Below, piece after piece: positions 41,751 through 61,481 of a DNA stretch of 64,000 bases. The notes beneath the pieces are model-generated. The model was not told the origin of the DNA, ran no database searches, and saw nothing but the letters and a program-made list of their open reading frames with translations. This DNA is from Burkholderiales bacterium (GTDB lineage Bacteria; Pseudomonadota; Gammaproteobacteria; Burkholderiales; SG8-39). How positions within the stretch are numbered: the stretch's first letter is position 1; every line of letters begins with the position of its first letter. A program made the position numbers and the translations under genes. The DNA lies in contig DASQGW010000187.1 of assembly GCA_035632415.1 (NCBI GenBank), positions 246 to 64,245 of the forward strand, given 5' to 3'.

Positions 41751-42776
41751 CTAGCGATTTTTCAGGACGAAGCCGGGCACGGGCTTGGAGAAGCCCTTGA
41801 GCTCGAACGGGCCGACGGGATCGAACTCGAAGACGCCGTCGAGCGCGGCCATGGTCTTGCGGTCGGCGAGGATCTGGCCGGCCTTCGCCTCGGCGCAAAG
41901 GCGCGCGGCGAGGTTGGTGACGTTGCCGATGGCGGCGTAGTCCCAGCGGCCCTCGAAGCCGATGGCGCCGAGCGTGGCGTAGCCCTGCGCGATGCCGACG
42001 CCGAGGCCGAGCTCGAAGCCGCTGCGCTTGTGCCAGTGCTTGCCGATCGGGACGAAGGCTTCCTGCACGGCGAGCGCGGTCTGCATGGCGTGCTCGGCGG
42101 GCTTCTCGATCGGCAGCGGGTCGTTGAAAAACACCATCACGGCGTCGCCGGCGAAGCGCTCGATCGTGCCCTGGTGCTCGAGGGCGATCTTGCCGAGCGC
42201 GCCGTGGAACGAGCGCAGGAGCTCCATTACCTCCTCGGGCTCGGCGTTGTCGGTGAAGGCGGTGAAGCCGCGCATGTCGAAGAACTCCACCGTGATCTCG
42301 CGGCGATGGGTCTTCAGCACCTCGTCGCCTTTTCCGGCCGCGATGGCTTCGGCAAGCGCGGGGGAGAAGAAGCTCTTCAGGCGCGTCAGCCGCTCATCCT
42401 GCAGCGCCTTGATGCGCAGGAGCGACCTCACGCGGGCAAAGAGCTCCGGCTGGTTGACCGGCTTCGAGAGGAAGTCGTCGGCGCCGGCCTCGATGCCCTT
42501 GATGCGCTCCTGGTGCGGATCGAGCGAGGTGCACATGACGACGGGCAGCAGCGCGGTGGCCGGGTTCTCGCGGATCTTGCGGCACACCTCGTAGCCGTTC
42601 AGGCCCGGCATCATCACGTCGAGAAGCACGAGATCCGGAGGCCGCTTCGCGATGCTCTCCAACGCGAGCTCGCCGTTCGCGGCGGTGGTCACCTCGTAGC
42701 CTTTGGCCGTGAGGAGATCGCCGAGCAGCTTGATGTTGGCCGGCGTGTCGTCGACAACCAGGATCTTCTGCGCCAT
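41751..42776 (-). CDS. response-regulator receiver fused to a class III nucleotidyl cyclase
   Basis: REC: ILVVDDTPANI, DLVLLDVMMPGLNG, DDFLSKP. Cyclase: EFFDMRGFT, RFAGDAVMVFF, IGNVTNLAARL. Confidence 0.9.
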   Translation of the reverse strand: MAQKILVVDDTPANIKLLGDLLTAKGYEVTTAANGELALESIAKRPPDLVLLDVMMPGLNGYEVCRKIRENPATALLPVVMCTSLDPHQERIKGIEAGADDFLSKPVNQPELFARVRSLLRIKALQDERLTRLKSFFSPALAEAIAAGKGDEVLKTHRREITVEFFDMRGFTAFTDNAEPEEVMELLRSFHGALGKIALEHQGTIERFAGDAVMVFFNDPLPIEKPAEHAMQTALAVQEAFVPIGKHWHKRSGFELGLGVGIAQGYATLGAIGFEGRWDYAAIGNVTNLAARLCAEAKAGQILADRKTMAALDGVFEFDPVGPFELKGFSKPVPGFVLKNR

Positions 42777-47704: not shown

Positions 47705-48790
47705 TCAGTGGCGAAGCTTCTTCAGGCGAAAAGCGGCAACCGGCTGGGCGAACCCTCGGAGGGTGAGCGGACCGACCTGATCGGTGTCCGCCAGGTGCGC
47801 GACGTCATGCTCGGCCTGGGCATCGAGGATGATCTCGCCGGCACGCGCGGCCCCGCATAACCGCGCCGCCAGGTTCGGCACGTTGCCGATCGCGGCGTAT
47901 TCCCAGCGCTGCTCGAAGCCGATGACGCCGAGCGTGGCTTCGCCCTGCGCGATGCCGATGCCGAGGCCGACGTCGTGGCCGAGCTTCGCCCACGCCTGCG
48001 AGATCGGCGTGAAGGCCTCCTGCAGCGAGAGCGACATGCGTACCGCGCGCTCCGCGGGCCGGTCGATCGGCAGCGGATCGCTGAAGAAGATCATGACGCC
48101 GTCGCCTGCGAAGTGCTCGAGCGTGCCGCCGTATTCGTCGACCGTGCGGCCGAGCGTCACGTGATACGTGCGCAGGAGATCCATCACCTCGTCCGGATCG
48201 GCGCGGTCGGTGAAGGCGGTGAAGCCGCGCAGGTCGAGGAACACTGCGGTGATCTCGCGCCGGTGCGGCTCGAGGATCTCCTCGCCGCCCGCAACGATGG
48301 CCTCGGCGACCGGCTTGGAGAAGAAACGCTTCAACCTGGAAAGGCGCTCGAGCTGCGCCACCTGGTCGCGCACGCGTTCGGCGAGCTTCTCGTTCAAATC
48401 TTTTAGCTCGTCCTGCAGCGCCTTCACGCGGAGCAGCGATCGCACTCGCGCGAAGAGCTCTTCCCAATTGATCGGCTTGGAAAGGAAATCGTCCGCACCG
48501 GCTTCCAGGCCCTTGATGCGCTCGCCTTGCGCATCGAGCGACGTGACGAGGATCACCGGCAGGAGCGCCGTTTCCGGCGCGGCGCGCAGGCGCCGGCAAA
48601 GGTCGTAGCCGTCGACCCCGGGCATCAGGATGTCCGAGACCACGAGATCCGGATGCACCTCGCGCACCAGCTCGAGCGCCTGCTGGCCATCGAGTGCGGT
48701 GTGGACCGCATAGCCGCGCGCCTTCAGCACGCCGGCGAGCATCTCGACGTTCGAGCGCTGATCGTCGACGATCAGGATGCGCGCCGCCAT
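47705..48790 (-). CDS. response-regulator receiver fused to a class III nucleotidyl cyclase (paralog of 41751..42776)
   Basis: REC: ILIVDDQRSNV, DLVVSDILMPGVDG, DDFLSKP. Cyclase: VFLDLRGFT, HFAGDGVMIFF, IGNVPNLAARL. Confidence 0.9.
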   Translation of the reverse strand: MAARILIVDDQRSNVEMLAGVLKARGYAVHTALDGQQALELVREVHPDLVVSDILMPGVDGYDLCRRLRAAPETALLPVILVTSLDAQGERIKGLEAGADDFLSKPINWEELFARVRSLLRVKALQDELKDLNEKLAERVRDQVAQLERLSRLKRFFSKPVAEAIVAGGEEILEPHRREITAVFLDLRGFTAFTDRADPDEVMDLLRTYHVTLGRTVDEYGGTLEHFAGDGVMIFFSDPLPIDRPAERAVRMSLSLQEAFTPISQAWAKLGHDVGLGIGIAQGEATLGVIGFEQRWEYAAIGNVPNLAARLCGAARAGEIILDAQAEHDVAHLADTDQVGPLTLRGFAQPVAAFRLKKLRH

Positions 48791-51389: not shown

Positions 51390-53039
51390 ATGCGCCAGCT
51401 TGAGCGGCGGCTGAGGCTCGCCACGGGCCTCATCATTGCCTGCTTCGTCGTCGGGCATTTCCTGAATCACTCGCTCGGCGTCGTGTCGATCGACGCCATG
51501 GACCGGTTGCGCGCGGTGCTCGCGGCATGGTGGCGCAGCGCGCCGGGCACCGTCCTCCTGTATGGCTCGCTGCTCACTCATTTCGCGCTGGCGCTCGTCT
51601 CGCTCTACCGTAGGACGACGCTGCGCATGCCGGCCTGGGAAGCAACCCAGCTCGTCCTCGGCCTCGCGATTCCACCGCTTCTCATCGCGCACATCGTCGG
51701 AACGCGGTTCTACTGGCTGCTCCTCGGGCACAACATCAACTACGAGCGCATGGTCGGCGTGCTGTGGTCGGACCCATGGTCGGCCGCGCGGCAGTCGATC
51801 CTGCTTCTCATCGCCTGGACGCATTTCTGCTTCGGCATGCATTACTGGCTGCGATTGAAGCGCTGGTACGAGACGGCGCTGCCTTCGCTCTTCGCCGCGG
51901 CGCTGTTAATCCCGGCGCTCGCGCTCGCCGGCTTTGCCGCCGCCGGCAACGAGCTCTGGCCGGCGGTGGAGCGCGTGGGCGGCATGCAGAAATACAACCT
52001 CGACCTCGCCGGCATGAAGCCGATCGAGCGCGAGCGGATGCTCGAGTGGCGCCAGGGGCTCGAGCTCGCGTTCTGGGCGCTCCTCGGCGCGACGCTCCTC
52101 GCTCGCTGGCTGCGCACGCGCATCGGCGGCACCTATGAGCTGCGCCACGCCTCGGGGCGCGTGATCACCGCGCCGATCGGCCGCAGCATCCTGGAGGCGG
52201 TGCGCGACGCGGGGCTGCCGCATGCTTCGGTATGCGGCGGCCGGGCCCGCTGCACGACCTGCCGCGTGCGCATTGGCGACGGTCTTGCGGCGCTCGCGCC
52301 GCCGGCCGCGATGGAAGCACAGGCGCTCGCGCGCATCGAGGCCCCGCCGAACGTGCGGCTCGCCTGCCAGACGCGGCCGCGCCACGACGTCTCGGTCATT
52401 CCGCTCCTGCCTCCAGGCGCCGACGCAACCGCGGCGCGTCGGCCGGGCACGGCGCGCGAACGCGAACGCCAGGTGGTGGCGATGTTCGTCGACCTGCGCG
52501 GCTCGACGCGCATCGCCGAATCGCGCCTGCCCTACGACGTCGTCTTCATCATGAACCAGTTCTTCGCCGAGATGTATGCGGCGCTGCGCGCGACGAACGG
52601 CTACTACGCCCAGTTCCGAGGCGATGGCCTGCTCGCGCTGTACGGGCTGGAAGGCGACCTCGCCTCGGCGTGCCGCGACGCGATGCGCGGCGCCGCCGAG
52701 ATGCAACGCCGCATCGAGCGGCTCTCGAAGAGCCTCAGCGCGGAGCTCGCCGAGCCGCTCAAGATCGGCATCGGCGCGCACGCCGGCGTGGCGATCGTCG
52801 GCACCATGGGCCCGCCGGAGGCGCCGATCTACTCGGCGATCGGCGACAACGTCAACATCGCCGCGCGCTTCGAGGGTATGACCAAGGCATACGGCTGCGT
52901 CATGGTGGTCTCCGCCGACACGCTTGCGCAGGCAGGACTCGATCCCCGCGGCGCGCCGGTGCATCGGGTAAGAGTGCGCGGCCGCAACGAGCGGGTGACC
53001 GTCTACGCCGTCGCCGATCCCCGCCAGCTCTTTAATTAA
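51390..53039 (+). CDS. membrane-anchored 2Fe-2S ferredoxin-domain class III nucleotidyl cyclase
   Basis: About 230 aa with 4-5 hydrophobic helices. Ferredoxin motif CGGRARCTTCRV...LACQ. Cyclase motifs MFVDLRGST, QFRGDGLLALY, IGDNVNIAARF. ATG immediately follows the ALDH stop (TGAATG). Confidence 0.85.
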   Translation: MRQLERRLRLATGLIIACFVVGHFLNHSLGVVSIDAMDRLRAVLAAWWRSAPGTVLLYGSLLTHFALALVSLYRRTTLRMPAWEATQLVLGLAIPPLLIAHIVGTRFYWLLLGHNINYERMVGVLWSDPWSAARQSILLLIAWTHFCFGMHYWLRLKRWYETALPSLFAAALLIPALALAGFAAAGNELWPAVERVGGMQKYNLDLAGMKPIERERMLEWRQGLELAFWALLGATLLARWLRTRIGGTYELRHASGRVITAPIGRSILEAVRDAGLPHASVCGGRARCTTCRVRIGDGLAALAPPAAMEAQALARIEAPPNVRLACQTRPRHDVSVIPLLPPGADATAARRPGTARERERQVVAMFVDLRGSTRIAESRLPYDVVFIMNQFFAEMYAALRATNGYYAQFRGDGLLALYGLEGDLASACRDAMRGAAEMQRRIERLSKSLSAELAEPLKIGIGAHAGVAIVGTMGPPEAPIYSAIGDNVNIAARFEGMTKAYGCVMVVSADTLAQAGLDPRGAPVHRVRVRGRNERVTVYAVADPRQLFN

Positions 53040-53057
53040 GGACGTTGTCCGGAATTA
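53034..53057. repeat. 24-nt AT-rich imperfect palindrome, copy B (exact reverse complement of 31028..31051)
   Basis: AATTAAGGACGTTGTCCGGAATTA. It contains the stop codons of both convergent flanking genes (TAA 53037-39, and TTA 53055-57 on the minus strand). Confidence 0.9.
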
Positions 53058-54557
53058 CCGGGGACCTTCGCGGTACGGGCGGCCGGCGGCGTAGAGCGCG
53101 AGGCGATCGCGGGCTTCTTTGCCGAAGCGCTTGTCGAACTCCGGCGAGTCGAGAGCCTTTTGCTGCAAGCGGATCGCCTCTGCGAATTCGCCGGCCTCGG
53201 CGTGCGCCGCCGCAAGCGTGTCGACGAAGTTGGGCTCCTGGTAGCGCGTGAGCTCGCACGCGGTCAACGCGAGCTCCTTCGCGCGCGGCGCGTTGCGCAG
53301 CGCGTCCTGGGTCGACGTGGCGAGGATCCAGGCGAGCGTGTTGTAGACCTCGGCGTCGCGGCTGCCGGAGGCAAGCGCCCGGTCGAGATCCTCCACGGCC
53401 GCCTGGTGCGCGCCGATCGCGCTGTAGAGCTCGCCGCGGGTCGCATAGGCGGTGGCGAGCTCGGGGCCGGAGAGCTTTCCGGCGACGATCGCGCTCGAGC
53501 AGGCCGCAAGGCGGCGCTCGAACGCGAGGCCGCGCGAGGCGCAGCGATCGAAGTCGGTCTCCGCCGCGAGCGCGCGCTCGATGCGCGCCGCCGTCACCGG
53601 ATGCGTGGAGAAATAATCCTGCGTTTTGCCGCTGGCGGCCGGCGGATGGCTGCGCTCCAGCAGCGTCAGCATGTCGGCGAAGGCGCGCGGCGAGATGCCC
53701 GCTTGCCGCATGCGCTGCAGGGCAAAGGCGTCGGCCTCGTCTTCGAACTTGCGCGAATAGCCCGTCTGGAGAAGCACGCTGGGGAGCGCGACCGCGAGGC
53801 TCGTGATCGAGCTCGCGTCGCCGGCGAGCGTCGTGACGAGCCCGAGCACACCTGCGCCTTGCAGCGCGGTGCGCAAGCCGTGCCGCGCGCGCAAGTGCCC
53901 CATCTCATGCGCCAGCACCGCGGCGATCTGGTCGTCGTTTTGCGCGAGCCTCACCAGCTCGTCGGTCATGACGATCGTGCCGCCGGGAAGGGCGAAGGCA
54001 TTCGGGCCGATGCGAGGACAGGCGCGGAGCTCGAGCCGGTATGCGTGATTATCGGCGAGGGCTTCGAGGCGCCGACGCAGCGCGGCCTGGCGGCGCGCCT
54101 CGACCGTACTGGGACCGCAGCCCGTACTTTCGAGGATCTGGAGCGTGCGTGAGCCGAGCGCTGCTTCCGCCTCCGCGGGCACGGCCGCGGCGATGTACTC
54201 GGCGGCGAGCGGCACGCCATGGACGATCGCCCACCACGTGGCTATCGCGACCAGCACCAATGCCGCGACGGCGTAGGGCCAGCGGCGCTCGAAGGTGTGG
54301 ATGCGCGACTCAAGCAGCGCCGCCTCGGGAAACAGCATTCGCACCGCTGCATCGTCCGCCGTGCGAAGCTGCGCGCCGTCCGGCAGCCGCAGGATGCGCG
54401 GCGTGTCGGCGATCGGCGGCTCGACTTTCACGGCCTCGCGCGGAACTCGCACATCGACGCCTTCACCCGTGAGCGTGAGCTCGCTCGTGAAGGCGCGCAC
54501 CCGCACCGCCCTGCTCGCCGAGCTGCGGCCGTCGTAATAGAGCGCGTCGAATTCCAT
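53055..54557 (-). CDS. M48-family zinc metallopeptidase with N-terminal beta-rich/TM region and C-terminal TPR repeats
   Basis: Motifs: AVLAHEMGHLRARH (HExxH), FEDEADAFA. TPR-like C-terminus (AYATRGELYSAIG..., YNTLAWILAT...). Confidence 0.85.
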   Translation of the reverse strand: MEFDALYYDGRSSASRAVRVRAFTSELTLTGEGVDVRVPREAVKVEPPIADTPRILRLPDGAQLRTADDAAVRMLFPEAALLESRIHTFERRWPYAVAALVLVAIATWWAIVHGVPLAAEYIAAAVPAEAEAALGSRTLQILESTGCGPSTVEARRQAALRRRLEALADNHAYRLELRACPRIGPNAFALPGGTIVMTDELVRLAQNDDQIAAVLAHEMGHLRARHGLRTALQGAGVLGLVTTLAGDASSITSLAVALPSVLLQTGYSRKFEDEADAFALQRMRQAGISPRAFADMLTLLERSHPPAASGKTQDYFSTHPVTAARIERALAAETDFDRCASRGLAFERRLAACSSAIVAGKLSGPELATAYATRGELYSAIGAHQAAVEDLDRALASGSRDAEVYNTLAWILATSTQDALRNAPRAKELALTACELTRYQEPNFVDTLAAAHAEAGEFAEAIRLQQKALDSPEFDKRFGKEARDRLALYAAGRPYREGPR

Positions 54558-54560
54558 CCG

Positions 54561-55619
54561 CTAAATGCTGAAGTCGAGCCCGAACATCTCGCCCACTTCT
54601 TCGCCGCTCGCGCTCACTTCGGCCGAGCGCTCGGCGACGAACTGGTCGAGCCCGCCGGCGACGATCGCCGTCGTCTTCTCGGCGCGATAGCGCATAGTCC
54701 GCACCACGGCCCACGGCGTGGCAAGCCCGAGCGTGAAGACGATGGCGAGAATGTTCACGAGATAAAGCAAGGCGAGATCGCGCGCGCGCAGACCGCTCTC
54801 GAAGCGCACCGCGTTCTCGCCGATCGATAGATGGTTCCAGATGGCGTTCGCGAACCGCGCGCGCACGTAGGCGAAGCCAGAGAGGTAGAAGGCGAGGACG
54901 CCGAGCGGCATCACCAGGATGCCCGTGATGGCGCCGGCGGCGCGGGCATTCGCGCCGGACATGCCGACCAACAGGCCGATCAGCATGCCGCACAGGAAAA
55001 AGAGCACGACGAGCAGCAGGACGAGCCCCAGGAACCGCAGGTAGATCCCGTAGAAAGCGCGCGCCAGGCTGGGCAGCGCGCACTGCGCGGTGCCATAGCG
55101 GTGATGGTCGGCGGTGTACTTCGTCAGGCGCGCCTGCGCATACGGGTAGGCGAAACCGATGGTCACGATGACGAACGCGGCGAGCCACGCGAAGAGCTTG
55201 AGCGCGCCGAGGTATTCGCCGTCGAAATGGAAGCGGATGTTGCGATAGGCGGTGTTATGCGCGTTGAACGCAAATGAGCGCACGAGCAGCCATGGAAAAG
55301 CGATCGCGAAGGCGATGGCGACGACGATCTGCAGCGTCACGGAAACATGGCCGGCAGCGCCGTAGAGGACGAAGATGACGACAGCGATGACGCGACCCCT
55401 CAGGATCGCGACCGGATCGCCGCGGTACTCGAAGCCCTCTCCGGCGAGAAGCGTGCTCGCATAGAAGTAGCGCTTCTTGCGCACCTTGGCCCACGGCGAG
55501 TAGATGCCGAGGGTGAGAACGGTCAGCGCGAGGTTGACGATCCAGATGCGGAAGTACTCGCCCGCCCTCGCCGTGAATTCGACCCGATGGCGTTCCGACG
55601 ATCCAGGAACGGCAGCCAT
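54561..55619 (-). CDS. DUF898/YjgN-family polytopic membrane protein
   Basis: FTARAGEYFRIWIVNLALTVLTLGIYSPWAKVR, with a repeat of the same motif near the C-terminus (LVNILAIVFTLGLATPWAVVR). Confidence 0.8.
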   Translation of the reverse strand: MAAVPGSSERHRVEFTARAGEYFRIWIVNLALTVLTLGIYSPWAKVRKKRYFYASTLLAGEGFEYRGDPVAILRGRVIAVVIFVLYGAAGHVSVTLQIVVAIAFAIAFPWLLVRSFAFNAHNTAYRNIRFHFDGEYLGALKLFAWLAAFVIVTIGFAYPYAQARLTKYTADHHRYGTAQCALPSLARAFYGIYLRFLGLVLLLVVLFFLCGMLIGLLVGMSGANARAAGAITGILVMPLGVLAFYLSGFAYVRARFANAIWNHLSIGENAVRFESGLRARDLALLYLVNILAIVFTLGLATPWAVVRTMRYRAEKTTAIVAGGLDQFVAERSAEVSASGEEVGEMFGLDFSI

Positions 55620-55671
55620 GATCCCCTCCCCTAGGACATGCTGACGGAATAATTACGTACTTGGTACGGAA

Positions 55672-56124
55672 TTATCTCTGGCCGCTGCGGGTGCGCGTGA
55701 GCTGGGTGGTGGTGCTGGCGAGGCGCGAAGCGAGGATCCTGATGAGCTCGATCGCCGCGTCCGGGTTCTCGCGGATGATCTTCATGAAGAGCTCCTTGGA
55801 AATCTTGAGCGTCTCGAGCTTGGTCAGCGCCTTGGCGGTCGCGGTGCGCGGCACCTCGCCGACGATGGCGATCTCGCCGAGGAGGTCGTTCTTCCCCATG
55901 TTGTTGATGACGATCGGGCCCGACGGCGTCGGCACCGAGATCTCGACGGTGCCGTCGATGATGACGTAGGCCGAGTCGCCGACGTCCCCGGCGTTGAAGA
56001 TCACCTGGCCGGAGTCGTACTTCAGGCGCTCCGCCGAGAAGCACAGCAGCTTCTGCATGGCCGGCTGGATCTTGCTGAAGATCGGGAACTGGCGGATGAG
56101 TTCGACTTCCTGCTCAAGGCTCAT
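55672..56124 (-). CDS. stand-alone cyclic-nucleotide-binding (CAP_ED) protein, 150 aa
   Basis: Motifs: FPIFSKI, GDSAYVIIDGTVEI. Phosphate-binding cassette LGEIAIVGEVPRTATAKA (G-E...R-T-A). No output domain. Confidence 0.85.
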   Translation of the reverse strand: MSLEQEVELIRQFPIFSKIQPAMQKLLCFSAERLKYDSGQVIFNAGDVGDSAYVIIDGTVEISVPTPSGPIVINNMGKNDLLGEIAIVGEVPRTATAKALTKLETLKISKELFMKIIRENPDAAIELIRILASRLASTTTQLTRTRSGQR

Positions 56125-56139
56125 GGGGCTTTTCTTTCG

Positions 56140-58800
56140 TTACGCTGCAACCAGTAATTTCTGGAGCGGCCCGCCGTTCGATTTCAGCTCGGCGAAGGCG
56201 CCCTTCTCGGCGAGCTTGCCGCGCTCCATGACCAGCACCACGTTGAAGCGCTCCGCCAGGTCGGGCCGCGAGAGCACCCAGGCGACGCCGCGCCCCTTGC
56301 GCTCGGCAAGGATGCCCTCCAGCACGCGCTGCTGCGAGTTCGGATCGAGCGGCCCGAGCGCCTGGTCGACCACCAGCAGCGCCGGCCGCTTGAGGAGCGC
56401 GCGCACCAGCGCGACCTTTTGCCGGTCGGCCACCGGCAGGCGCGCGCCGCCGACGCCGACCTGGTAGTCGAGGCCGATCGTGACGACAAGCGGCCGCAGG
56501 CCGAGCTCGTCGAGGAGCTCGCGCACGAGCGCCGTGATGCGCGTGGCCGCCTCGGCCTGCGCCGTGACGATCTTGCCGAAAAGGATGTTGTCCTGCAGCG
56601 TGGCGGCGCTGTTGTACGTCGCGGCGTCGAAGAATTCGATCGAGCGCTTGAGCTCCGCCGGCAGGCGCGCCGCGAAATGGCGCCGCGCCTCGACGACTCG
56701 CGCCTCGAAGCTTTCGTCGATGAGGCCCAGGCGGTGGCGGGCGGCGATCAGCTTGAAGGGCAGCGAGATCAGCGCGCGCTGCTCCGCAGCCTCCATCTCC
56801 TTCAGCCCCACGTCCTTCGCGCGCTGCAGGATCGCCTCGAACTGCGGCAGGTCCTCCTGGCGGATGAAGCTGTATTGCGCGAAGAATTCATGGCCCGGCG
56901 GCAAGCCGCTGAAGAGCTCGACCATCGTCTCGGCCACCTTGTGGCCGGTGCGGAGCAGGAGCTCATAGAGCCCCGTGTCGTTCAGCACCTGCCGCACGTA
57001 GGCATTCGCCGCCAGGTTGTCGAGGTCGAACGCTTTTCCCACCGGGGTGCCGAAGAGCAGGTTCTCGGCGAGCGTGGCGTTGCGGATGTATTTCTCCGGA
57101 TCGAAGCGCTCGACCCAGTCCTGGATGCCGAGCGACGCAAGGCGCTCGTGCATGCGCAGGCGCGCATCGAGCACGCGCGGGCCGAGCATCGCCGCGCGCC
57201 GCGAGTCGGCGGCGCTGCGCAAGCCCAGCTCGAAGATCGCTTCATCGAGATCCACCACGGAAAGGAGCTCGACGATGCGCCGGTCCATCTCATCGTGATT
57301 CGAGACGCCGGCGGCGGCGTAGTCGATCCAGTCGGCGTTGATATCGAGCGTGCTGTTGCCGGTGCGGGCCGCCTCCTTCAGCTCCGCTTCGCGCTGCTGG
57401 CGCACGTCATCGGTGTATCCCGCGTCCCGCACCGGTTCATGCTTCAGTCCATAGACGATGTTCTCCCGCACGCTCGTCGGGAAGAGATAGGCGGGCGCGC
57501 CAACGTAGGCGAGCGAGCGGCCGGTGACCGCCTCCGGGGCGCGCGTCATGTCGATGCCGCCCATCTCGATCGTGCCGTTGGTCGGCGGCACGAGGCGCGC
57601 GAGCATCTGCGCGAGCTCGCTCGCCCCGCCCGCCTGGCGGCCGACGATGGCGATGTGGTCGCTCATGCTGCATTCGAACGAGGCGTCTTCCACCACGCGG
57701 CTGCCGGCATCGTCCACCAGCGACAGGCGCGCCGCCTTCAGGCGACCCTCCTGCGGCATCGGCGGCGACTTGACCAACGCCTGCAGCTCGGCCGGCGCTA
57801 CTTCCTCCGCGGTGAATTGCTCGACGACCTGGTTGTACTTGATCTCGACGTCCATCCTCTGCTGGTCCCAGTCGATCAGCTCCTTCACCGGCCCCGGCAG
57901 GTCCTTGTACGCGGCGATCACGGCGACGAGCGCGCCGATGTCGAGCTTGCCGACGATGACGAGGTAGCCGCCGAGCGTGTAGAAGAGGAACGGGGTCACC
58001 TGCGCGAGGAAGTTATTCAGGAACTTGACCATGAACTTCCGCTGGTAGAGCTCGAAGCGGATGTTGAAGATCCTTCCCAGCCGGTCCGAAATTTCCGCCC
58101 GTTCATAGTTGGACGTGTCGTGGGCGTGGATCTCGGCGGCGCCTTCGACGCACTCGGCGATGCGCCCGGCGAGCGCGCGCGCGGTGAGCTGGCGCTCGCG
58201 GCCGAGCACCAGCTGGCGCCTGCGCAGGCGCGGGATGATGAACGCCTGCACGCCGACGATGCCGAGCGCGATCAGGCCGAGCACCCAGTGCTGGTACATG
58301 ATGAAGAACATCGCCGTGAGCGCCTGGCCGCCGAGGAAGAGCGGCGTGATGAGCGCGTCGCCGATGAAGCCGCCCAGGGGCTCCACCTCGTCCTTGACCA
58401 TCGTCGCCATCTCGGCGGGCTTCACGCGCCGGAAGCGCGTGAGCGGAAAGCGCAGGATGAAGTCGAAGAGCGAGAAGCGCAGGCGCCTCAGCATGCGCTC
58501 GCCCATCCAGCCCTTCATGGTGTTGATCTGGAACTTGAGCCAGCCGTTGAGGACGATCAGGCCGAGAAACAGGATCGAGAGCGCGAAGAGATACGGGATG
58601 CGGTGCAGGTCGAAGCCGAGCAGGCGCCTCACCGAGTCGGCGGTCGGGAAGGAGATGCCCTGGATCGCCTGGTTGATGATCGTCTTCGGCAGGTCGAGGG
58701 ACAGGTAATAGACCACCATCGACGCGACGACGAGCGGCACGATCAGCAGCTGATCGCGCTTGCTGTACTTCAGGATGAAGCCGAAGAGGCTGCGTTCCAA
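56140..58800 (-). CDS. ABC-exporter-like protein (TMD + NBD) with degenerate ATPase motifs and expanded NBD (886 aa)
   Basis: N-terminal 6-TM-type domain. Walker A-like GRQAGGAS (no Lys), signature-like LPVAD, Walker B-like LLVVDQ, H-loop position VLSRP. About 395 aa lie between Walker A and the signature. Confidence 0.75.
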   Translation of the reverse strand: MERSLFGFILKYSKRDQLLIVPLVVASMVVYYLSLDLPKTIINQAIQGISFPTADSVRRLLGFDLHRIPYLFALSILFLGLIVLNGWLKFQINTMKGWMGERMLRRLRFSLFDFILRFPLTRFRRVKPAEMATMVKDEVEPLGGFIGDALITPLFLGGQALTAMFFIMYQHWVLGLIALGIVGVQAFIIPRLRRRQLVLGRERQLTARALAGRIAECVEGAAEIHAHDTSNYERAEISDRLGRIFNIRFELYQRKFMVKFLNNFLAQVTPFLFYTLGGYLVIVGKLDIGALVAVIAAYKDLPGPVKELIDWDQQRMDVEIKYNQVVEQFTAEEVAPAELQALVKSPPMPQEGRLKAARLSLVDDAGSRVVEDASFECSMSDHIAIVGRQAGGASELAQMLARLVPPTNGTIEMGGIDMTRAPEAVTGRSLAYVGAPAYLFPTSVRENIVYGLKHEPVRDAGYTDDVRQQREAELKEAARTGNSTLDINADWIDYAAAGVSNHDEMDRRIVELLSVVDLDEAIFELGLRSAADSRRAAMLGPRVLDARLRMHERLASLGIQDWVERFDPEKYIRNATLAENLLFGTPVGKAFDLDNLAANAYVRQVLNDTGLYELLLRTGHKVAETMVELFSGLPPGHEFFAQYSFIRQEDLPQFEAILQRAKDVGLKEMEAAEQRALISLPFKLIAARHRLGLIDESFEARVVEARRHFAARLPAELKRSIEFFDAATYNSAATLQDNILFGKIVTAQAEAATRITALVRELLDELGLRPLVVTIGLDYQVGVGGARLPVADRQKVALVRALLKRPALLVVDQALGPLDPNSQQRVLEGILAERKGRGVAWVLSRPDLAERFNVVLVMERGKLAEKGAFAELKSNGGPLQKLLVAA

Positions 58801-58831: not shown

Positions 58832-59662
58832 ATGGGGGGTAAGGCACCTTTTACCGTTCGCTTCTGGGGCGTGCGCGGCTCGATCGCGTGCTCCGGTCCT
58901 CGCACGGCGCGCTATGGCGGCAACACTTCGTCGCTCGAAGTGCGCTGCGGCGACCGTCTTCTCCTTTTCGATGCGGGCACCGGCATCCGCTATCTCGGCA
59001 AGACCCTCACCGGCTCGCGCATCGACGGCGATATCTACTTCACGCATACACATTTTGACCATGTGTGCGGCCTGCCCTTTTTCGGGCCGCTCTTTCAGCC
59101 GCAGAACAAGTTCCGCCTCTGGGCCGGCCACTTGAGCGGCGCGATGACGCTGAAGCGGGTGCTGGCGGAATTCATGATGTCGCCGCTCTTCCCCGTGCCG
59201 CCGGAAGTGTTCCGCTCGACGCTCGAGTACCGCGATTTCAAGGCGGGCGAGACGCTATCCGCAGCAAGCAACGTCACCGTGCGCACGGCGCCGCTCAACC
59301 ATCCCGACGGAGCGACCGGCTACCGCGTCGAGTTCGACGGGCGCGCCATCTGCTACGTCACCGACACCGAGCACGTCCCCGGCAGCCTCGACCGCAACGT
59401 GCTCGGGCTCATCGCCAGGGCGGACCTCGTCGTCTACGACTGCATGTACACCGATGACGAATACCGGCGCTACGTCGGCTGGGGCCACTCGACCTGGCAG
59501 GAAGGCGTGCGCCTGTGCAAGGAGGCCGGCGTGAAGCGCATGGTGGTGTTCCACCACGATCCCGACCACGACGACGAAATGCTCGACGGCATCGCGCGCG
59601 AGATCGGAAAGCAGATGCCCGGTTGCGTGGTCGCGCACGAAGGGCTCGTCCTCGAGCCTTGA
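58832..59662 (+). CDS. MBL-fold metallo-hydrolase
   Basis: Motifs: RFWGVRGS, FDAGTG, THTHFDHVCGLPFF (HxHxDH), HHDPDHDD. Confidence 0.8.
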   Translation: MGGKAPFTVRFWGVRGSIACSGPRTARYGGNTSSLEVRCGDRLLLFDAGTGIRYLGKTLTGSRIDGDIYFTHTHFDHVCGLPFFGPLFQPQNKFRLWAGHLSGAMTLKRVLAEFMMSPLFPVPPEVFRSTLEYRDFKAGETLSAASNVTVRTAPLNHPDGATGYRVEFDGRAICYVTDTEHVPGSLDRNVLGLIARADLVVYDCMYTDDEYRRYVGWGHSTWQEGVRLCKEAGVKRMVVFHHDPDHDDEMLDGIAREIGKQMPGCVVAHEGLVLEP

Positions 59663-60315: not shown

Positions 60316-61481
60316 ACACTTCTTCCGTCCAGGAGTGGCTCGATGCGGGCGCGCAGCCGGCCGAGCGCCCCCAGGACGTGCTGCAGCACCTGTGCCGGCG
60401 CCTCGTCGGCCTGGGCATGCCGCTCTACCGGGTTGCCGTATTCGTGCGCACGCTGCATCCGAACGTCGCCGGCCGCGCGTTCATCTGGCACGAGCCGCAG
60501 GACGCGGTCGAGATCGTCACCGCCGAGCTCGGCATCCAGGAGACGGATACCTACCTGAAGAGCCCGGTGCGCGTCGTGTTTACCGAGCACGTCGAGGTGC
60601 GGCGGCGCATCGGTCCCGGCGCGCTCGATTTCCCGATCCTCGAGGACCTGCGCAAGGAGGGCGCGACCGATTTCTTCGCGGTACCGATGCGCTTCATCAA
60701 CGGCGAGGTCCACGGGGCGAGCTTCGTCACGCGCCGCGCCGGCGGCTTCGCCGATGCCGAGCTCGAAGCGCTGCGGCGCATCATGCCCGCCTTTTCCCGC
60801 GTGGCGGAGATCTACGCCTGGAAGCGCACGGCACGGAATATCCTCGATGCATATCTCGGCGAGCAGACCGGCGAGAAGGTGCTCGCCGGGAGAATCCGCC
60901 GCGGCGACGGCGAGGACATCCGCGCGGTGATCTGGTTCTGCGACCTGCGCGACTCGACGCCGCTCGCCGATTCGATGAGCCGGGTCGAATTCCTGCGCCT
61001 CCTGAACGAGTTCTTCGAATGCGTGCTCGGCCCGGTGCTCGAGCAGAAGGGCGAAGTGCTGCGGTTCATCGGCGACGCTGCGCTCGCTATCTTTCCCATC
61101 CCGCAGGGCGATGTCGCCGAGCGGGCCGGAGCGGCGCGCCGGGCGGTCCAGGCCGCCCAGGCGGCGGTCGAGCGCATGGCGGCGTTCAATGCCCGGCGCG
61201 AGCGCAAGCTCCGCTTCGGCATCGGCCTGCATCTCGGGCATGTGCTGTACGGCAACATCGGCACGCCGACCCGGATCGAATTCACCGTCATCGGCGCAGC
61301 CGCCAATGAAGCGGCCCGGATCGAGGGGTTCTGCAAGACGCTGGACGTTCCGCTGGTGCTCTCCGAGCCTGTGGCGCGCCATGTCGCGGACTGCGTGTCG
61401 CTCGGCAGCCATCGCCTGCGCGGCGTCGAGGAGCCGATCGAGCTTTTCACATTGAAAGCAATTCGCCCGCATCAGCCGTAA
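60297..61481 (+). CDS. class III nucleotidyl cyclase with ~190-aa N-terminal sensor domain
   Basis: From MAAQVLDTSSVQEW. Cyclase motifs: IWFCDLRDST, RFIGDAALAIF, IGAAANEAARI. Confidence 0.85.
   Translation: MAAQVLDTSSVQEWLDAGAQPAERPQDVLQHLCRRLVGLGMPLYRVAVFVRTLHPNVAGRAFIWHEPQDAVEIVTAELGIQETDTYLKSPVRVVFTEHVEVRRRIGPGALDFPILEDLRKEGATDFFAVPMRFINGEVHGASFVTRRAGGFADAELEALRRIMPAFSRVAEIYAWKRTARNILDAYLGEQTGEKVLAGRIRRGDGEDIRAVIWFCDLRDSTPLADSMSRVEFLRLLNEFFECVLGPVLEQKGEVLRFIGDAALAIFPIPQGDVAERAGAARRAVQAAQAAVERMAAFNARRERKLRFGIGLHLGHVLYGNIGTPTRIEFTVIGAAANEAARIEGFCKTLDVPLVLSEPVARHVADCVSLGSHRLRGVEEPIELFTLKAIRPHQP

Follow-up and report, generated by a model that had tools for sequence, protein, structure and literature searches.

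Gene layout of the block

The window, namely the whole 64,000-nucleotide stretch analyzed here, contains four minus-strand open reading frames at positions 56140–58800, 55672–56124, 54561–55619, and 53055–54557, which are separated by gaps of 15, 52, and 3 nt. The first starts with TTG and encodes an ABC-like protein of 886 residues, and the second encodes a stand-alone cNMP-binding protein of 150 residues (CNB), to which Pfam assigns PF00027 alone. The third gene product is a DUF898 (YjgN-like) protein of 352 residues (PF05987, E = 4e-107), which is polytopic by hydropathy, and the fourth is a 500-residue metallopeptidase composed of DUF7092 (PF23368), a transmembrane (TM) helix, M48 (PF01435), and TPR parts. 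The reading frames and Pfam matches agree with a preliminary description of this DNA, which had listed four co-directional genes with the same gaps and domains. The block is flanked by a divergent gene for an MBL-fold hydrolase (58832–59662, plus strand) at a distance of 31 nt and by a convergent gene for a membrane Fer2-class III cyclase (51390–53039, plus strand) at 15 nt. A GGDEF protein gene is also located in these surroundings, and no glycosyltransferase gene was found inside the window.

The four genes are predicted from their spacing alone to form an operon. The 52-nt spacer (55620–55671, minus strand) between the CNB and DUF898 genes is AT-rich and contains a weak hairpin, CGTACcaaGTACG, and a ribosome-binding site, GGGGAGGGG; a sigma-70-like promoter was looked for in this spacer and not found. 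As detailed below, we consider this spacer to be the junction of two evolutionarily independent two-gene cassettes arranged head to tail. The explanation taken as a whole, which comprises the two cassettes, a mechanism for the ABC-like protein with CNB, and a single insertion, is judged to be probable.

The ABC-like protein and its cNMP-binding partner

The ABC-like protein matched PF00664 (ABC_membrane) at residues 73–296 (57913–58584, minus strand) and PF00005 in a split form. Its AF2 model (pLDDT 81.8, pTM 0.76) gave TM287/288, MsbA, PCAT1, and TmrAB as the top half-transporter matches in Foldseek, from which a type IV ABC exporter fold consisting of a transmembrane domain and a pseudo-NBD is predicted. 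The transmembrane and NBD folds resemble those of the type IV, ABCB-like proteins MsbA, TM287/288, TmrAB, the PCAT1 core, and Sav1866, with target-normalised TM-scores of approximately 0.55–0.62 and profile E-values of 1e-41 or better. Unlike these half-transporters, the ABC-like protein has replacements of the Walker A Lys, Q-loop Gln, signature, Walker B Glu, and H-loop His, a 280-residue insert between Walker A and the signature, and an obligate cNMP-receptor partner. Its Walker A motif is GRQAGGAS (57619–57642, minus strand), without Lys, located in a region that has a 2-residue deletion in some relatives. The signature (LPVAD) and Walker B (LLVVDQ, a Glu to Gln change) lie within 56362–56439 of the same strand, while the Q-loop is missing its Gln and the H-loop (WVLSRP) its His. 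The earlier statement that all ATPase motifs are degenerate was hence confirmed for each of these motifs.

Such motif loss spans the whole family in differing forms, which are GAS/GGS, D-Q, and LPxxD in the betaproteobacterial members and GKD/E, N-E, and LSxxQ in many alphaproteobacterial ones. Judging from their motifs, some alphaproteobacterial members that keep the Walker A Lys could still bind nucleotide. The family is nevertheless strongly conserved, with a mean column identity of 65% (40 sequences) and dN/dS of 0.14–0.18. The ABC-like protein might still be ATP-driven, either by forming a heterodimer with a canonical half-transporter encoded elsewhere or by non-canonical nucleotide binding. 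Heterodimeric exporters in which one site is degenerate, such as TM287/288, TmrAB, and BmrCD, are well established and are also found among its structural neighbors, and many alphaproteobacterial members retain both the Walker A Lys and the Walker B Glu. However, Walker A and the signature are both degenerate in the protein of the window, so that any dimer would have two badly impaired composite sites; in the alphaproteobacterial forms, neither the Mg-coordinating Ser/Thr nor the Asp of Walker B is retained; and no second exporter half is conserved near the ABC-like gene in any of 80 neighborhoods. These observations make ATP-driven transport very unlikely.

The family-specific insert covers residues 455–735 (approximately 280 residues; 56596–57438, minus strand) and is built of repeated Q-loop-to-helical-subdomain segments, with motif copies at residues 442, 574, and 732. 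Residues 561–620 were aligned with residues 719–777 by hhalign at a probability of 97% (E = 1.2e-10), and the first copy gave only a weak match. An internal duplication is supported by this self-comparison. The insert was matched by 579 clusters (50% identity) at E ≤ 1e-10.

CNB contains the phosphate-binding cassette G83-E84...R93-T94-A95 (55840–55878, minus strand), which was correctly recognized as intact in the preliminary description. Across 77 orthologues, the Gly, Arg, and Ala of this cassette are invariant, and the Glu and Thr are at least 90% conserved. We surveyed 80 genomes of Beta- and Alphaproteobacteria that encode the ABC-like protein at 49–86% identity. The CNB gene was located directly 3' of the ABC-like gene in 77/77 loci with room for it, and this adjacency spans Burkholderiales, Rhodoferax, Nitrosomonadales, Kiloniellales, Reyranella, Dongiaceae, and Hyphomicrobiales. 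Furthermore, distant family members of 1044–1061 residues carry PF00027 at their own C-terminus. The conserved adjacency and the fused form indicate that CNB serves the ATPase-dead ABC-like protein as a dedicated partner, and this pair is the more interesting unit of the block. Stand-alone or fused cNMP-binding domains also accompany bacteriocin-type ABC exporters (TIGR03896 'cyc_nuc_ocin' and HetC-type exporters), in which the ATPase motifs remain active and a C39 peptidase is part of the context. Assignment to TIGR03896 was rejected, as the NCBIfam score of 31 bits fell far below the cut-off of 161.

A convergent cyclase gene follows CNB immediately in approximately two-thirds of the Burkholderiales loci. 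The cyclases at this position have three architectures, of which the catalytic domain is the sole common part, and the Fer2-class III type is the ancestral immediate neighbor of the CNB gene. The chance expectation for a cyclase at this position is approximately 0.01 per locus, on the basis of 18 class III cyclase domains in the whole 4.08-Mb genome. Four of these domains lie in the contig, in line with the four cyclase genes noted earlier beside the block, and the association of cyclases with the ABC-like and CNB genes in Burkholderiales is non-random. The divergent MBL-fold gene also recurs beside the pair, in 30 Burkholderiales loci, and its product is a possible cNMP phosphodiesterase. Relatives of this hydrolase bear a precomputed Apyc1-family label, which a separate scan did not reproduce; its nearest solved relatives are RNase Z/ElaC.

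The DUF898 and M48 genes and their arrival behind CNB

The metallopeptidase gene encodes, in order on the minus strand, a DUF7092 domain (54327–54551), a single TM helix (54213–54269), an M48 domain (53568–54095) with an intact HEMGH at residue 217 (53895–53909) and EDEAD at residue 272, and a TPR tail (53058–53540), for which the TPR matches are weak and under the Pfam cut-offs. In our survey of 300 Pseudomonadota genomes, which yielded 29 DUF898 loci, an M48 gene directly followed DUF898 in 27 of them. The recurrent pairing noted in the preliminary description is therefore real and very broad, and no published function was found for the DUF898 and DUF7092-M48 pair, as had also been stated there. 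The window's genes share the families, their order, and a 3-nt gap with this pair, whose DUF898 member belongs to the E. coli YjgN family. They differ from the usual pair in lying behind a cNMP module and in the 160-residue TPR tail, which is found in one sub-family only, and accordingly represent a TPR-tailed sub-type of a widespread membrane-protease pair. The best-characterised solved relative of the metallopeptidase is BepA (YfgC; E = 2e-10), a periplasmic M48-TPR protease/chaperone of E. coli that participates in outer-membrane-protein assembly. TPR repeats follow the M48 catalytic domain in both proteins, whereas the window's protein has no signal peptide and possesses a DUF7092 domain, one TM anchor, and a DUF898 partner. 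It is not a BepA member by NCBIfam (score 57, cut-off 570). The DUF7092 domain is probably cytoplasmic, and the BepA-like M48-TPR part that follows the TM helix is probably periplasmic.

The preliminary description proposed that all four proteins assemble into a single membrane complex under cNMP control, with M48-TPR proteolysis as its output. Such a complex, whether general or confined to a clade, would be consistent with the tight co-directional genes between divergent and convergent neighbors, with a spacer that has a weak hairpin only and no promoter-like site, and with the maintenance of the arrangement in several species-level relatives. The two pairs also co-occur at the genome level more often than expected (11 genomes versus 4.1; odds ratio 4.9, Fisher p = 5.5e-4, with kinship ignored). 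However, DUF898 and M48 genes follow the ABC-like and CNB genes in only 1/77 loci, neither CNB nor the ABC-like gene lies upstream of DUF898 in any of the 29 DUF898 loci, and 10/10 other sampled genomes that hold both pairs hold them unlinked. Linkage of DUF898-M48 to the other two genes was thus not found outside one narrow clade, which, by the refutation criterion of the preliminary description, counts against the module.

According to the ABC-protein tree, the DUF898-M48-TPR cassette was gained once, and its bearers form one clade (support 100/98) inside cassette-free relatives. The slot it occupies, with CNB on one side and the convergent cyclase gene on the other, is variable; in relatives it is empty or contains either an ABC_sub_bind or an IS200-like gene. 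In the locus L124, an ABC_sub_bind gene is interposed between CNB and DUF898. The same cassette was found in an unrelated context, away from the ABC-like and CNB genes, in L122, L123, and L125. In addition, CNB would reside in the cytoplasm, on the opposite side of the membrane from the probable location of the M48-TPR part. One sub-lineage later lost DUF898 and the DUF7092 domain in a single deletion, and its M48-TPR gene remains 32 nt after CNB under purifying selection (dN/dS 0.20), a point in favor of a four-protein complex. The association is stable within the cassette-bearing clade, which would agree with a functional link confined to this clade. Overall, the four genes are not a conserved four-part machine and were joined by one insertion in a restricted set of soil Burkholderiales. 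The comparisons offer no grounds for assuming that DUF898-M48 cooperates with the ABC-like protein and CNB, and a single complex is quite unlikely. What is supported in the original proposal is the DUF898-M48 pairing, the partnership of CNB with the ABC-like protein, and the association of cyclases with the latter pair in Burkholderiales, not the four proteins as one module.

It can also be asked if the cassette is a decaying, functionless passenger in this clade. Within the block, DUF898 evolves fastest, showing 44–51% amino-acid identity where the flanking genes hold 86–96%, and its dN/dS reached 0.62 against L124. The M48 genes left in the DUF898-less sub-lineage have ragged 5' ends and encode 317–380 residues, some without the TM helix. 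Against such decay, all examined copies of the cassette are intact reading frames with HEXXH, the TPR tail is nearly invariant, and dN/dS for both genes was 0.20–0.23 between the window and L113, L119, and L120. A passenger role is hence highly improbable.

Probable link to envelope glycans and a possible mechanism

The ABC-like protein aligns along 100% of its length, at 46% identity, with RL_RS29995 of R. johnstonii 3841 plasmid pRL11, which is probably pRL110047. The family is also present on S. meliloti pSymB, with full-length homology that includes the insert. The pSymB homologue coincides with SMb21269 and is followed by a CNB gene that is probably SMb21270. SMb21269 (842345–844435) is listed as 'PPP-biosynthesis; ABC exporter', where PPP denotes the phazolicin-protecting polysaccharide, an envelope polysaccharide assigned to the cluster smb21252–smb21271 (PMC10128002). 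In Tn-seq under phazolicin, its log2 changes are given as −4.0 to −5.4, similar to the values for the adjoining glycosyltransferases, and cyaA is depleted too (PMC10128002). A study of R. leguminosarum includes pRL110047 among the genes required in nodules. As far as these sources describe it, the genetic output of the family is thus envelope polysaccharide, together with nodule fitness, and not the proteolysis suggested in the preliminary description. These publications label the protein an ordinary 'ABC exporter', and the dead ATPase, the insert, and the cNMP receptor go unmentioned in the passages searched.

Both rhizobial systems have a stand-alone CNB gene directly downstream, similar to the window, and the S. 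meliloti locus has an Opp-type importer upstream and a cyclase close by. Rhodoferax, R. johnstonii pRL11, and S. meliloti pSymB all encode an Opp-type importer together with a GT28-type glycosyltransferase on the upstream side. In contrast, the window has no adjoining glycosyltransferase genes; cyclases, the MBL hydrolase, and the GGDEF protein are encoded instead, along with the DUF898-M48 insertion. The glycan link of its ABC-like protein is suggested by homology at approximately 46% identity and by synteny in relatives.

On this basis, the ABC-like protein and CNB probably constitute a cNMP-controlled, ATP-independent device for glycan export. The adjoining cyclases would supply cAMP or cGMP, which would bind to CNB and which the divergent MBL hydrolase might clear. 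The loaded CNB may then dock on the platform formed by the pseudo-NBD and its insert and switch the exporter-type transmembrane domain, which would export or flip an envelope glycan or its lipid-linked precursor with no power stroke from ATP. The NBD has lost its Mg-ATP binding and hydrolysis residues family-wide and has gained the conserved insert of repeated helical-subdomain segments. DUF898-M48 was inserted once, in the ancestor of the clade, and is probably transcribed there by read-through from the promoter of the ABC-like and CNB genes.

The same features could instead describe a non-transporting, cNMP-dependent membrane scaffold or regulator, for example of the neighboring glycosyltransferases or of the Opp-type importer that many relatives encode upstream. 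The family-wide loss of ATP-handling residues and the large new cytoplasmic platform would suit a scaffold, as would the upstream importer, which in Rhodoferax and rhizobia is complete, has its own fused ATPase, and lies 11–14 nt away. The transmembrane domain is, however, strongly conserved and modeled as a complete exporter half, and no direct evidence favors regulation over transport. The reported S. meliloti disruption phenocopies the loss of the glycan synthesis genes, an outcome that agrees with export and with regulation alike, and a scaffold is considered unlikely.

Organization of the four-gene block

The block comprises four minus-strand genes separated by gaps of 15, 52 and 3 nt. 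The first (56140–58800, minus strand) starts with TTG and encodes the 886-aa ATPase-dead, ABC-like membrane protein ABC*, in which Pfam detected ABC_membrane (PF00664, the six-helix exporter transmembrane domain; E 4.5e-14) and an ABC_tran match split in two. The stand-alone cNMP-binding protein CNB is encoded 15 nt further on (55672–56124, minus strand; 150 aa; Pfam cNMP_binding only), and we refer to these two genes as cassette 1. Cassette 2 consists of a DUF898 gene (54561–55619, minus strand; 352 aa; Pfam DUF898, E 4e-107) and an M48 peptidase gene (53055–54557, minus strand; 500 aa; Pfam DUF7092, Peptidase_M48 and weak TPR matches). No NCBIfam model reached its cut-off for any of the four proteins. 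The block is flanked on its upstream side, at a distance of 31 nt, by a divergent MBL-fold gene and on its downstream side, at 15 nt, by a convergent Fer2-cyclase gene.

ABC* possesses the transmembrane domain of a type IV exporter, but every catalytic motif of a competent one is replaced. The Walker A position reads GRQAGGAS, without the Lys of GxxGxGK[ST] (two residues are missing here in some relatives), the Q-loop (YVGAPAY) has lost its Gln, the signature is LPVAD instead of LSGGQ, Walker B (LLVVDQ) carries Gln in place of the Glu of hhhhDE, and the H-loop (WVLSRP) has lost its His. The phosphate-binding cassette of CNB is intact (G83-E84...R93-T94-A95). Unlike the CRP/FNR transcription factors, CNB has only 150 aa, matches positions 11–137 of the 214-position CRP profile at a score well below the cut-off, and lacks their C-terminal helix-turn-helix DNA-binding domain. 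Because the ORFs, domains and motif states are as the preliminary description had them, namely four minus-strand genes with these gaps and domains, wholly degenerate ATPase motifs, and a lone cNMP-binding domain with an intact G-E...R-T-A cassette, the four-gene observation is confirmed.

The M48 peptidase carries HEMGH at residue 217 and EDEAD at residue 272, and its nearest solved relatives are the Geobacter M48 protein 3C37 and BepA. It differs from BepA in scoring 57 bits against a cut-off of 570 (M48_BAM_BepA, NF052400), and in having an N-terminus composed of DUF7092 and a transmembrane anchor instead of a signal peptide. A single transmembrane helix (residues 97–115) follows the DUF7092 domain, and a weak charge bias favors an N-terminus in the cytoplasm and an M48-TPR part in the periplasm, which is the topology we infer from the sequence.

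A promoter and terminator scan found no sigma-70-like site, and the hairpins it returned were weak and at chance level. Cassette 2 in this clade would probably ride on the upstream promoter, since the 52-nt spacer between CNB and DUF898 has no promoter-like site and one weak hairpin. The block sequence was found in DNA metagenome runs, and no RNA run gave a match.

Separate distribution and single junction of the two cassettes

The four genes had been proposed to form one cNMP-controlled complex with a proteolytic output, and the two cassettes were examined for co-occurrence. Database relatives of ABC* equal in length number in the thousands. A scan with ABC* of one genome per species gave at least 582 loci, of which 80 with 49–86% identity were kept, belonging to Burkholderiales, Rhodoferax, Nitrosomonadales, Kiloniellales, Reyranella, Enhydrobacter, Vineibacter, Pelagibius, Dongiaceae, and Hyphomicrobiales. 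When these were searched by tblastn with the four window proteins, a same-strand CNB gene was located directly 3' of ABC* in every one of the 77 loci with room for it; DUF898 and M48 stood behind ABC*-CNB in one of the 77, L057, which is the closest relative among the 80.

On the DUF898 side, 49 genomes in an even sample of 301 from Pseudomonadota had the gene. Among the best 29 loci from genomes other than that of the window, a same-strand M48 gene with HEXXH followed DUF898 in 27, usually overlapping it or lying a few bases away, which bears out the earlier statement that the pair recurs in proteobacteria. The window genes show the same arrangement, PF05987 being followed by a same-strand PF23368+PF01435 protein with HEXXH. 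The M48 partners of DUF898 in the sampled loci have 330–400 aa and no TPR tail. The TPR-tailed form constitutes a sub-family. Long open frames in three loci, considered as DUF898-M48 single-protein fusions, were rejected as stop-free alternative frames in GC-rich DNA. Neither CNB nor ABC* was detected within 1.5 kb upstream of DUF898 in any of the 29 loci.

The family-specific insert of ABC* was found in 25 of the same 301 genomes. Both pairs were present in 11 genomes where 4.1 would be expected (odds ratio 4.9 and p 5.5e-4, genomes being counted irrespective of phylogeny), and in all ten besides that of the window they were unlinked, residing on separate contigs or with 300 kb or more between them. 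Because adjacency is rare on the ABC* side and nil on the DUF898 side, and the pairs are unlinked elsewhere, a four-gene module extending beyond the DUF898-M48 pair is refuted outside the clade of the window. The junction itself has a single, monophyletic origin.

The slot between the CNB and the convergent Fer2-cyclase genes (window 53040–55671) varies in content among close relatives, the closer ones compared being metagenomic. It holds DUF898 and M48 in L113 and L057, where all four genes are present, and ABC_sub_bind, DUF898 and M48 in L124. In L119, L120 and L121, and apparently also in L114 and L115, it holds an M48-TPR gene of 317–380 aa alone, without DUF898 or the DUF7092 domain. Among more distant relatives, the slot is empty in L003–L009 and L018, contains an ABC_sub_bind gene in L001 and L050, and contains an IS200-like Y1 transposase gene in L010. 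In the maximum-likelihood tree of ABC*, all rows bearing cassette 2 fall in one clade (support 100/98) in which L057 branches first, and those lacking DUF898 are nested within it as a sub-clade (94/91). A single gain of cassette 2 followed by one partial loss is the simplest history. A TPR-tailed DUF898-M48 cassette also occurs elsewhere in an unrelated context, adjoining glutaredoxin and DUF6627 genes. The best-supported reading of the block is that of two independent cassettes joined by one insertion.

A stretch of 22 nt starting from the CNB stop codon (TAATTCCGTACCAAGTACGTAA, window 55653–55674) is identical at 17 of 22 positions to that from the M48 stop codon (TAATTCCGGACAACGTCCTTAA, 53036–53057), and each contains a small hairpin. 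This likeness was considered as an insertion scar and dropped, as none of L113, L057 and L124 has the motif.

All genes are under purifying selection (dN/dS 0.04–0.23 versus the closest relatives). DUF898 of L057 (9659–10672) and L124 (2335–3399) shares 44–51% amino-acid identity with the window gene, far below the 86–96% of the CNB, ABC* and cyclase flanks in the same loci, and its dN/dS versus L124 is 0.62. Both DUF898 and M48 are more diverged than the flanks, at synonymous sites too; together with the fast change of DUF898, this points to allelic exchange or to diversifying selection acting on cassette 2.

In an abundant sub-lineage, a truncated M48-TPR gene lies right after CNB (L119 6001–6954, L120 6001–7143, L121 4406–5548; proteins P0151–P0173). 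Its products of 317–394 aa have no DUF7092 and have partly or wholly lost the transmembrane helix, while HEXXH is intact and the TPR tail is near-invariant. The main point against full independence of the cassettes is that M48-TPR still stands directly behind CNB after the loss of DUF898, with a dN/dS of 0.20. Because of this retention, we leave a small chance to a clade-specific functional link between the cassettes, which we otherwise consider improbable.

The four-gene module is not worth pursuing as a unit, and guilt by association between cNMP signaling and DUF898-M48 would hang on a single insertion event. A literature search found no functional study of DUF898, YjgN or the pair, in line with the earlier remark that the pair has no established function. 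The clade of the window provides a natural experiment on this unstudied pair, which was gained once, has a fast-evolving DUF898, and lost DUF898 and DUF7092 once with the protease kept.

The ABC*-CNB family and its rhizobial homologues

The ATPase motifs are lost throughout the family, though in differing forms: GAS/GGS, D-Q and LPxxD in betaproteobacterial members, and GKD/E, N-E and LSxxQ in many of the alphaproteobacterial ones. The mean column identity of ABC* is 65% over 40 sequences of both classes, and on this conservation and on dN/dS a pseudogene reading was rejected. A single internal stop at about codon 739 was seen in the ABC* gene of a Denitrobaculum MAG (L054 8001–10688), where either the sequence is in error or the gene was inactivated recently.

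An insert of approximately 280 residues separates the Walker A position from the signature. Its segments 561–620 and 719–777 are homologous (hhalign probability 97%, E 1.2e-10), and a first copy at about residue 430 gave a weak match, which confirms a triplication in part only. A search with the insert alone returned 579 clusters at 50% identity (E ≤ 1e-10). The AF2 model of ABC* (pTM 0.76; pLDDT 81.8, and about 90 across the NBD and the insert) resembles halves of the type IV exporters TM287/288, MsbA, PCAT1 and TmrAB according to Foldseek, as does the sequence profile. The phosphate-binding cassette of CNB is conserved across 77 orthologues, and in distant members of 1044–1061 aa a cNMP-binding domain is fused to the C-terminus, which is independent evidence that ABC* and CNB work together. 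Two fused members, L116 (G176:C1, 1982–6068) and L117 (G132:C1, 503–5280), have new neighbors; one is followed by an Rce1-like (CPBP) intramembrane protease gene, and the other is preceded by an HlyD-family adaptor gene. For a described cNMP-linked degenerate ABC exporter, the literature search returned general ABC reviews only.

Rhizobial replicons and plasmids encode ABC* homologues with about 46% identity over 100% of the query, the ~280-aa insert included. The window pair resembles the SMb21269/pRL110047 type in this full-length homology and in the cNMP-binding domain encoded directly downstream. On pRL11 of R. johnstonii 3841 the gene order is Opp ATPase, SBP, two permeases, three glycosyltransferases, ABC* and CNB, and it is repeated on pSymB of S. 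meliloti with the addition of an upstream cyclase. The S. meliloti homologue was matched to SMb21269 via coordinates in the supplement of PMC10128002, where the entry at 842345–844435 reads "PPP-biosynthesis; ABC exporter", PPP being the phazolicin-protecting envelope polysaccharide. In that paper, SMb21269 shows a Tn-seq depletion of −4.0 to −5.4 with phazolicin, matching the adjoining glycosyltransferase genes redA and redB; the adenylate cyclase gene cyaA is also depleted, and cAMP control of these genes is cited (PMC10128002). The pRL11 homologue of ABC*, RL_RS29995, is probably pRL110047, which is listed as required in pea nodules.

On pSymB of S. meliloti 1021 (L112 13598–16250), the ABC* gene aligns as two segments that differ in frame, and the annotation of SMb21269 does not start until 842345. 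The homologue of strain 2011 (NC_020560) aligns in one piece (residues 1–904), which points to a frameshift or a sequencing error in the 1021 reference.

Genomic neighborhood and proposed role of ABC*-CNB

In Burkholderiales, a convergent class III cyclase gene lies right after CNB in approximately two-thirds of the loci, and these cyclases are of three architectures with the catalytic domain alone in common. The genome holds 18 class III cyclase domains, four of them on this contig and within 20 kb (41760–42305, 47753–48259, 52458–53000 and 60927–61352), in accordance with the four cyclase genes noticed earlier. This cyclase-rich stretch of the window is a dense second-messenger island.

A divergent MBL hydrolase gene is found near ABC*-CNB in 30 Burkholderiales loci. 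For the MBL hydrolase (window 58832–59662), the gene tables of the relatives L113, L114, L119 and L120 give PF23023 (Anti-Pycsar Apyc1), a cyclic-nucleotide phosphodiesterase family by its Pfam label. An Apyc1-type cNMP phosphodiesterase role is kept at possible, because hmmscan against Pfam returned Lactamase_B_2 and Lactamase_B only, and no PF23023, for the window protein, whose nearest solved sequences are RNase Z/ElaC.

An Opp-type importer is encoded upstream of ABC* in Burkholderiales. In Rhodoferax, this importer has its own fused ATPase and ends 11–14 nt before ABC*, with a GT28 gene preceding it. The alphaproteobacterial neighbors of ABC* are GT28 and GT4 glycosyltransferase genes, a Methyltransf_17 gene and an EEP-family gene. 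The glycosyltransferase/Opp-type importer locus is not inside the window, whose contig ends about 0.5 kb beyond; OppC is located 5.8 kb upstream in close relatives, and in L015, L016 and L044 the Opp genes are preceded by GT28.

Most probably, cassette 1 acts on an envelope glycan as a device controlled by cNMP and independent of ATP, and we infer its steps from cNMP binding through gating. A fuller proposal is speculative, and we rate it rather doubtful: ABC*-CNB might be an ABC-exporter-fold machine in which a cyclic nucleotide on a dedicated receptor replaces the ATP cycle as the conformational switch, with a complete local circuit of cyclase, receptor and probable phosphodiesterase gating envelope-glycan export in Burkholderiales, and with the inserted M48-TPR perhaps recruited as a periplasmic partner. 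Such recruitment would explain the retention of M48-TPR behind CNB after the loss of DUF898.

ABC*-CNB is the real lead of this block. The pair would represent a bacterial effector of cyclic nucleotides that works directly on a membrane transport scaffold, not on transcription, and ABC* would have kept the ABC fold while giving up ATP hydrolysis. Independent support comes from the Burkholderiales version, next to which cyclases of three architectures have been recruited, as has a candidate phosphodiesterase. Tractable family members are SMb21269 of S. meliloti (PPP, phazolicin tolerance) and, in R. leguminosarum, probably pRL110047 (nodule fitness). The single-origin junction, the variable slot, the partial loss, and the cyclase and hydrolase context in Burkholderiales are new here.

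The cyclase stretch of the window also contains a Crp-like gene, a GGDEF protein and response regulators. In the close relatives L113 (1261–1995) and L114 (1107–2024), the Opp permease genes are separated from the GGDEF-cyclase-MTase-MBL block by genes for a single-domain response regulator and a pentapeptide-repeat protein, which in one case carries an Ion_trans_2 domain.
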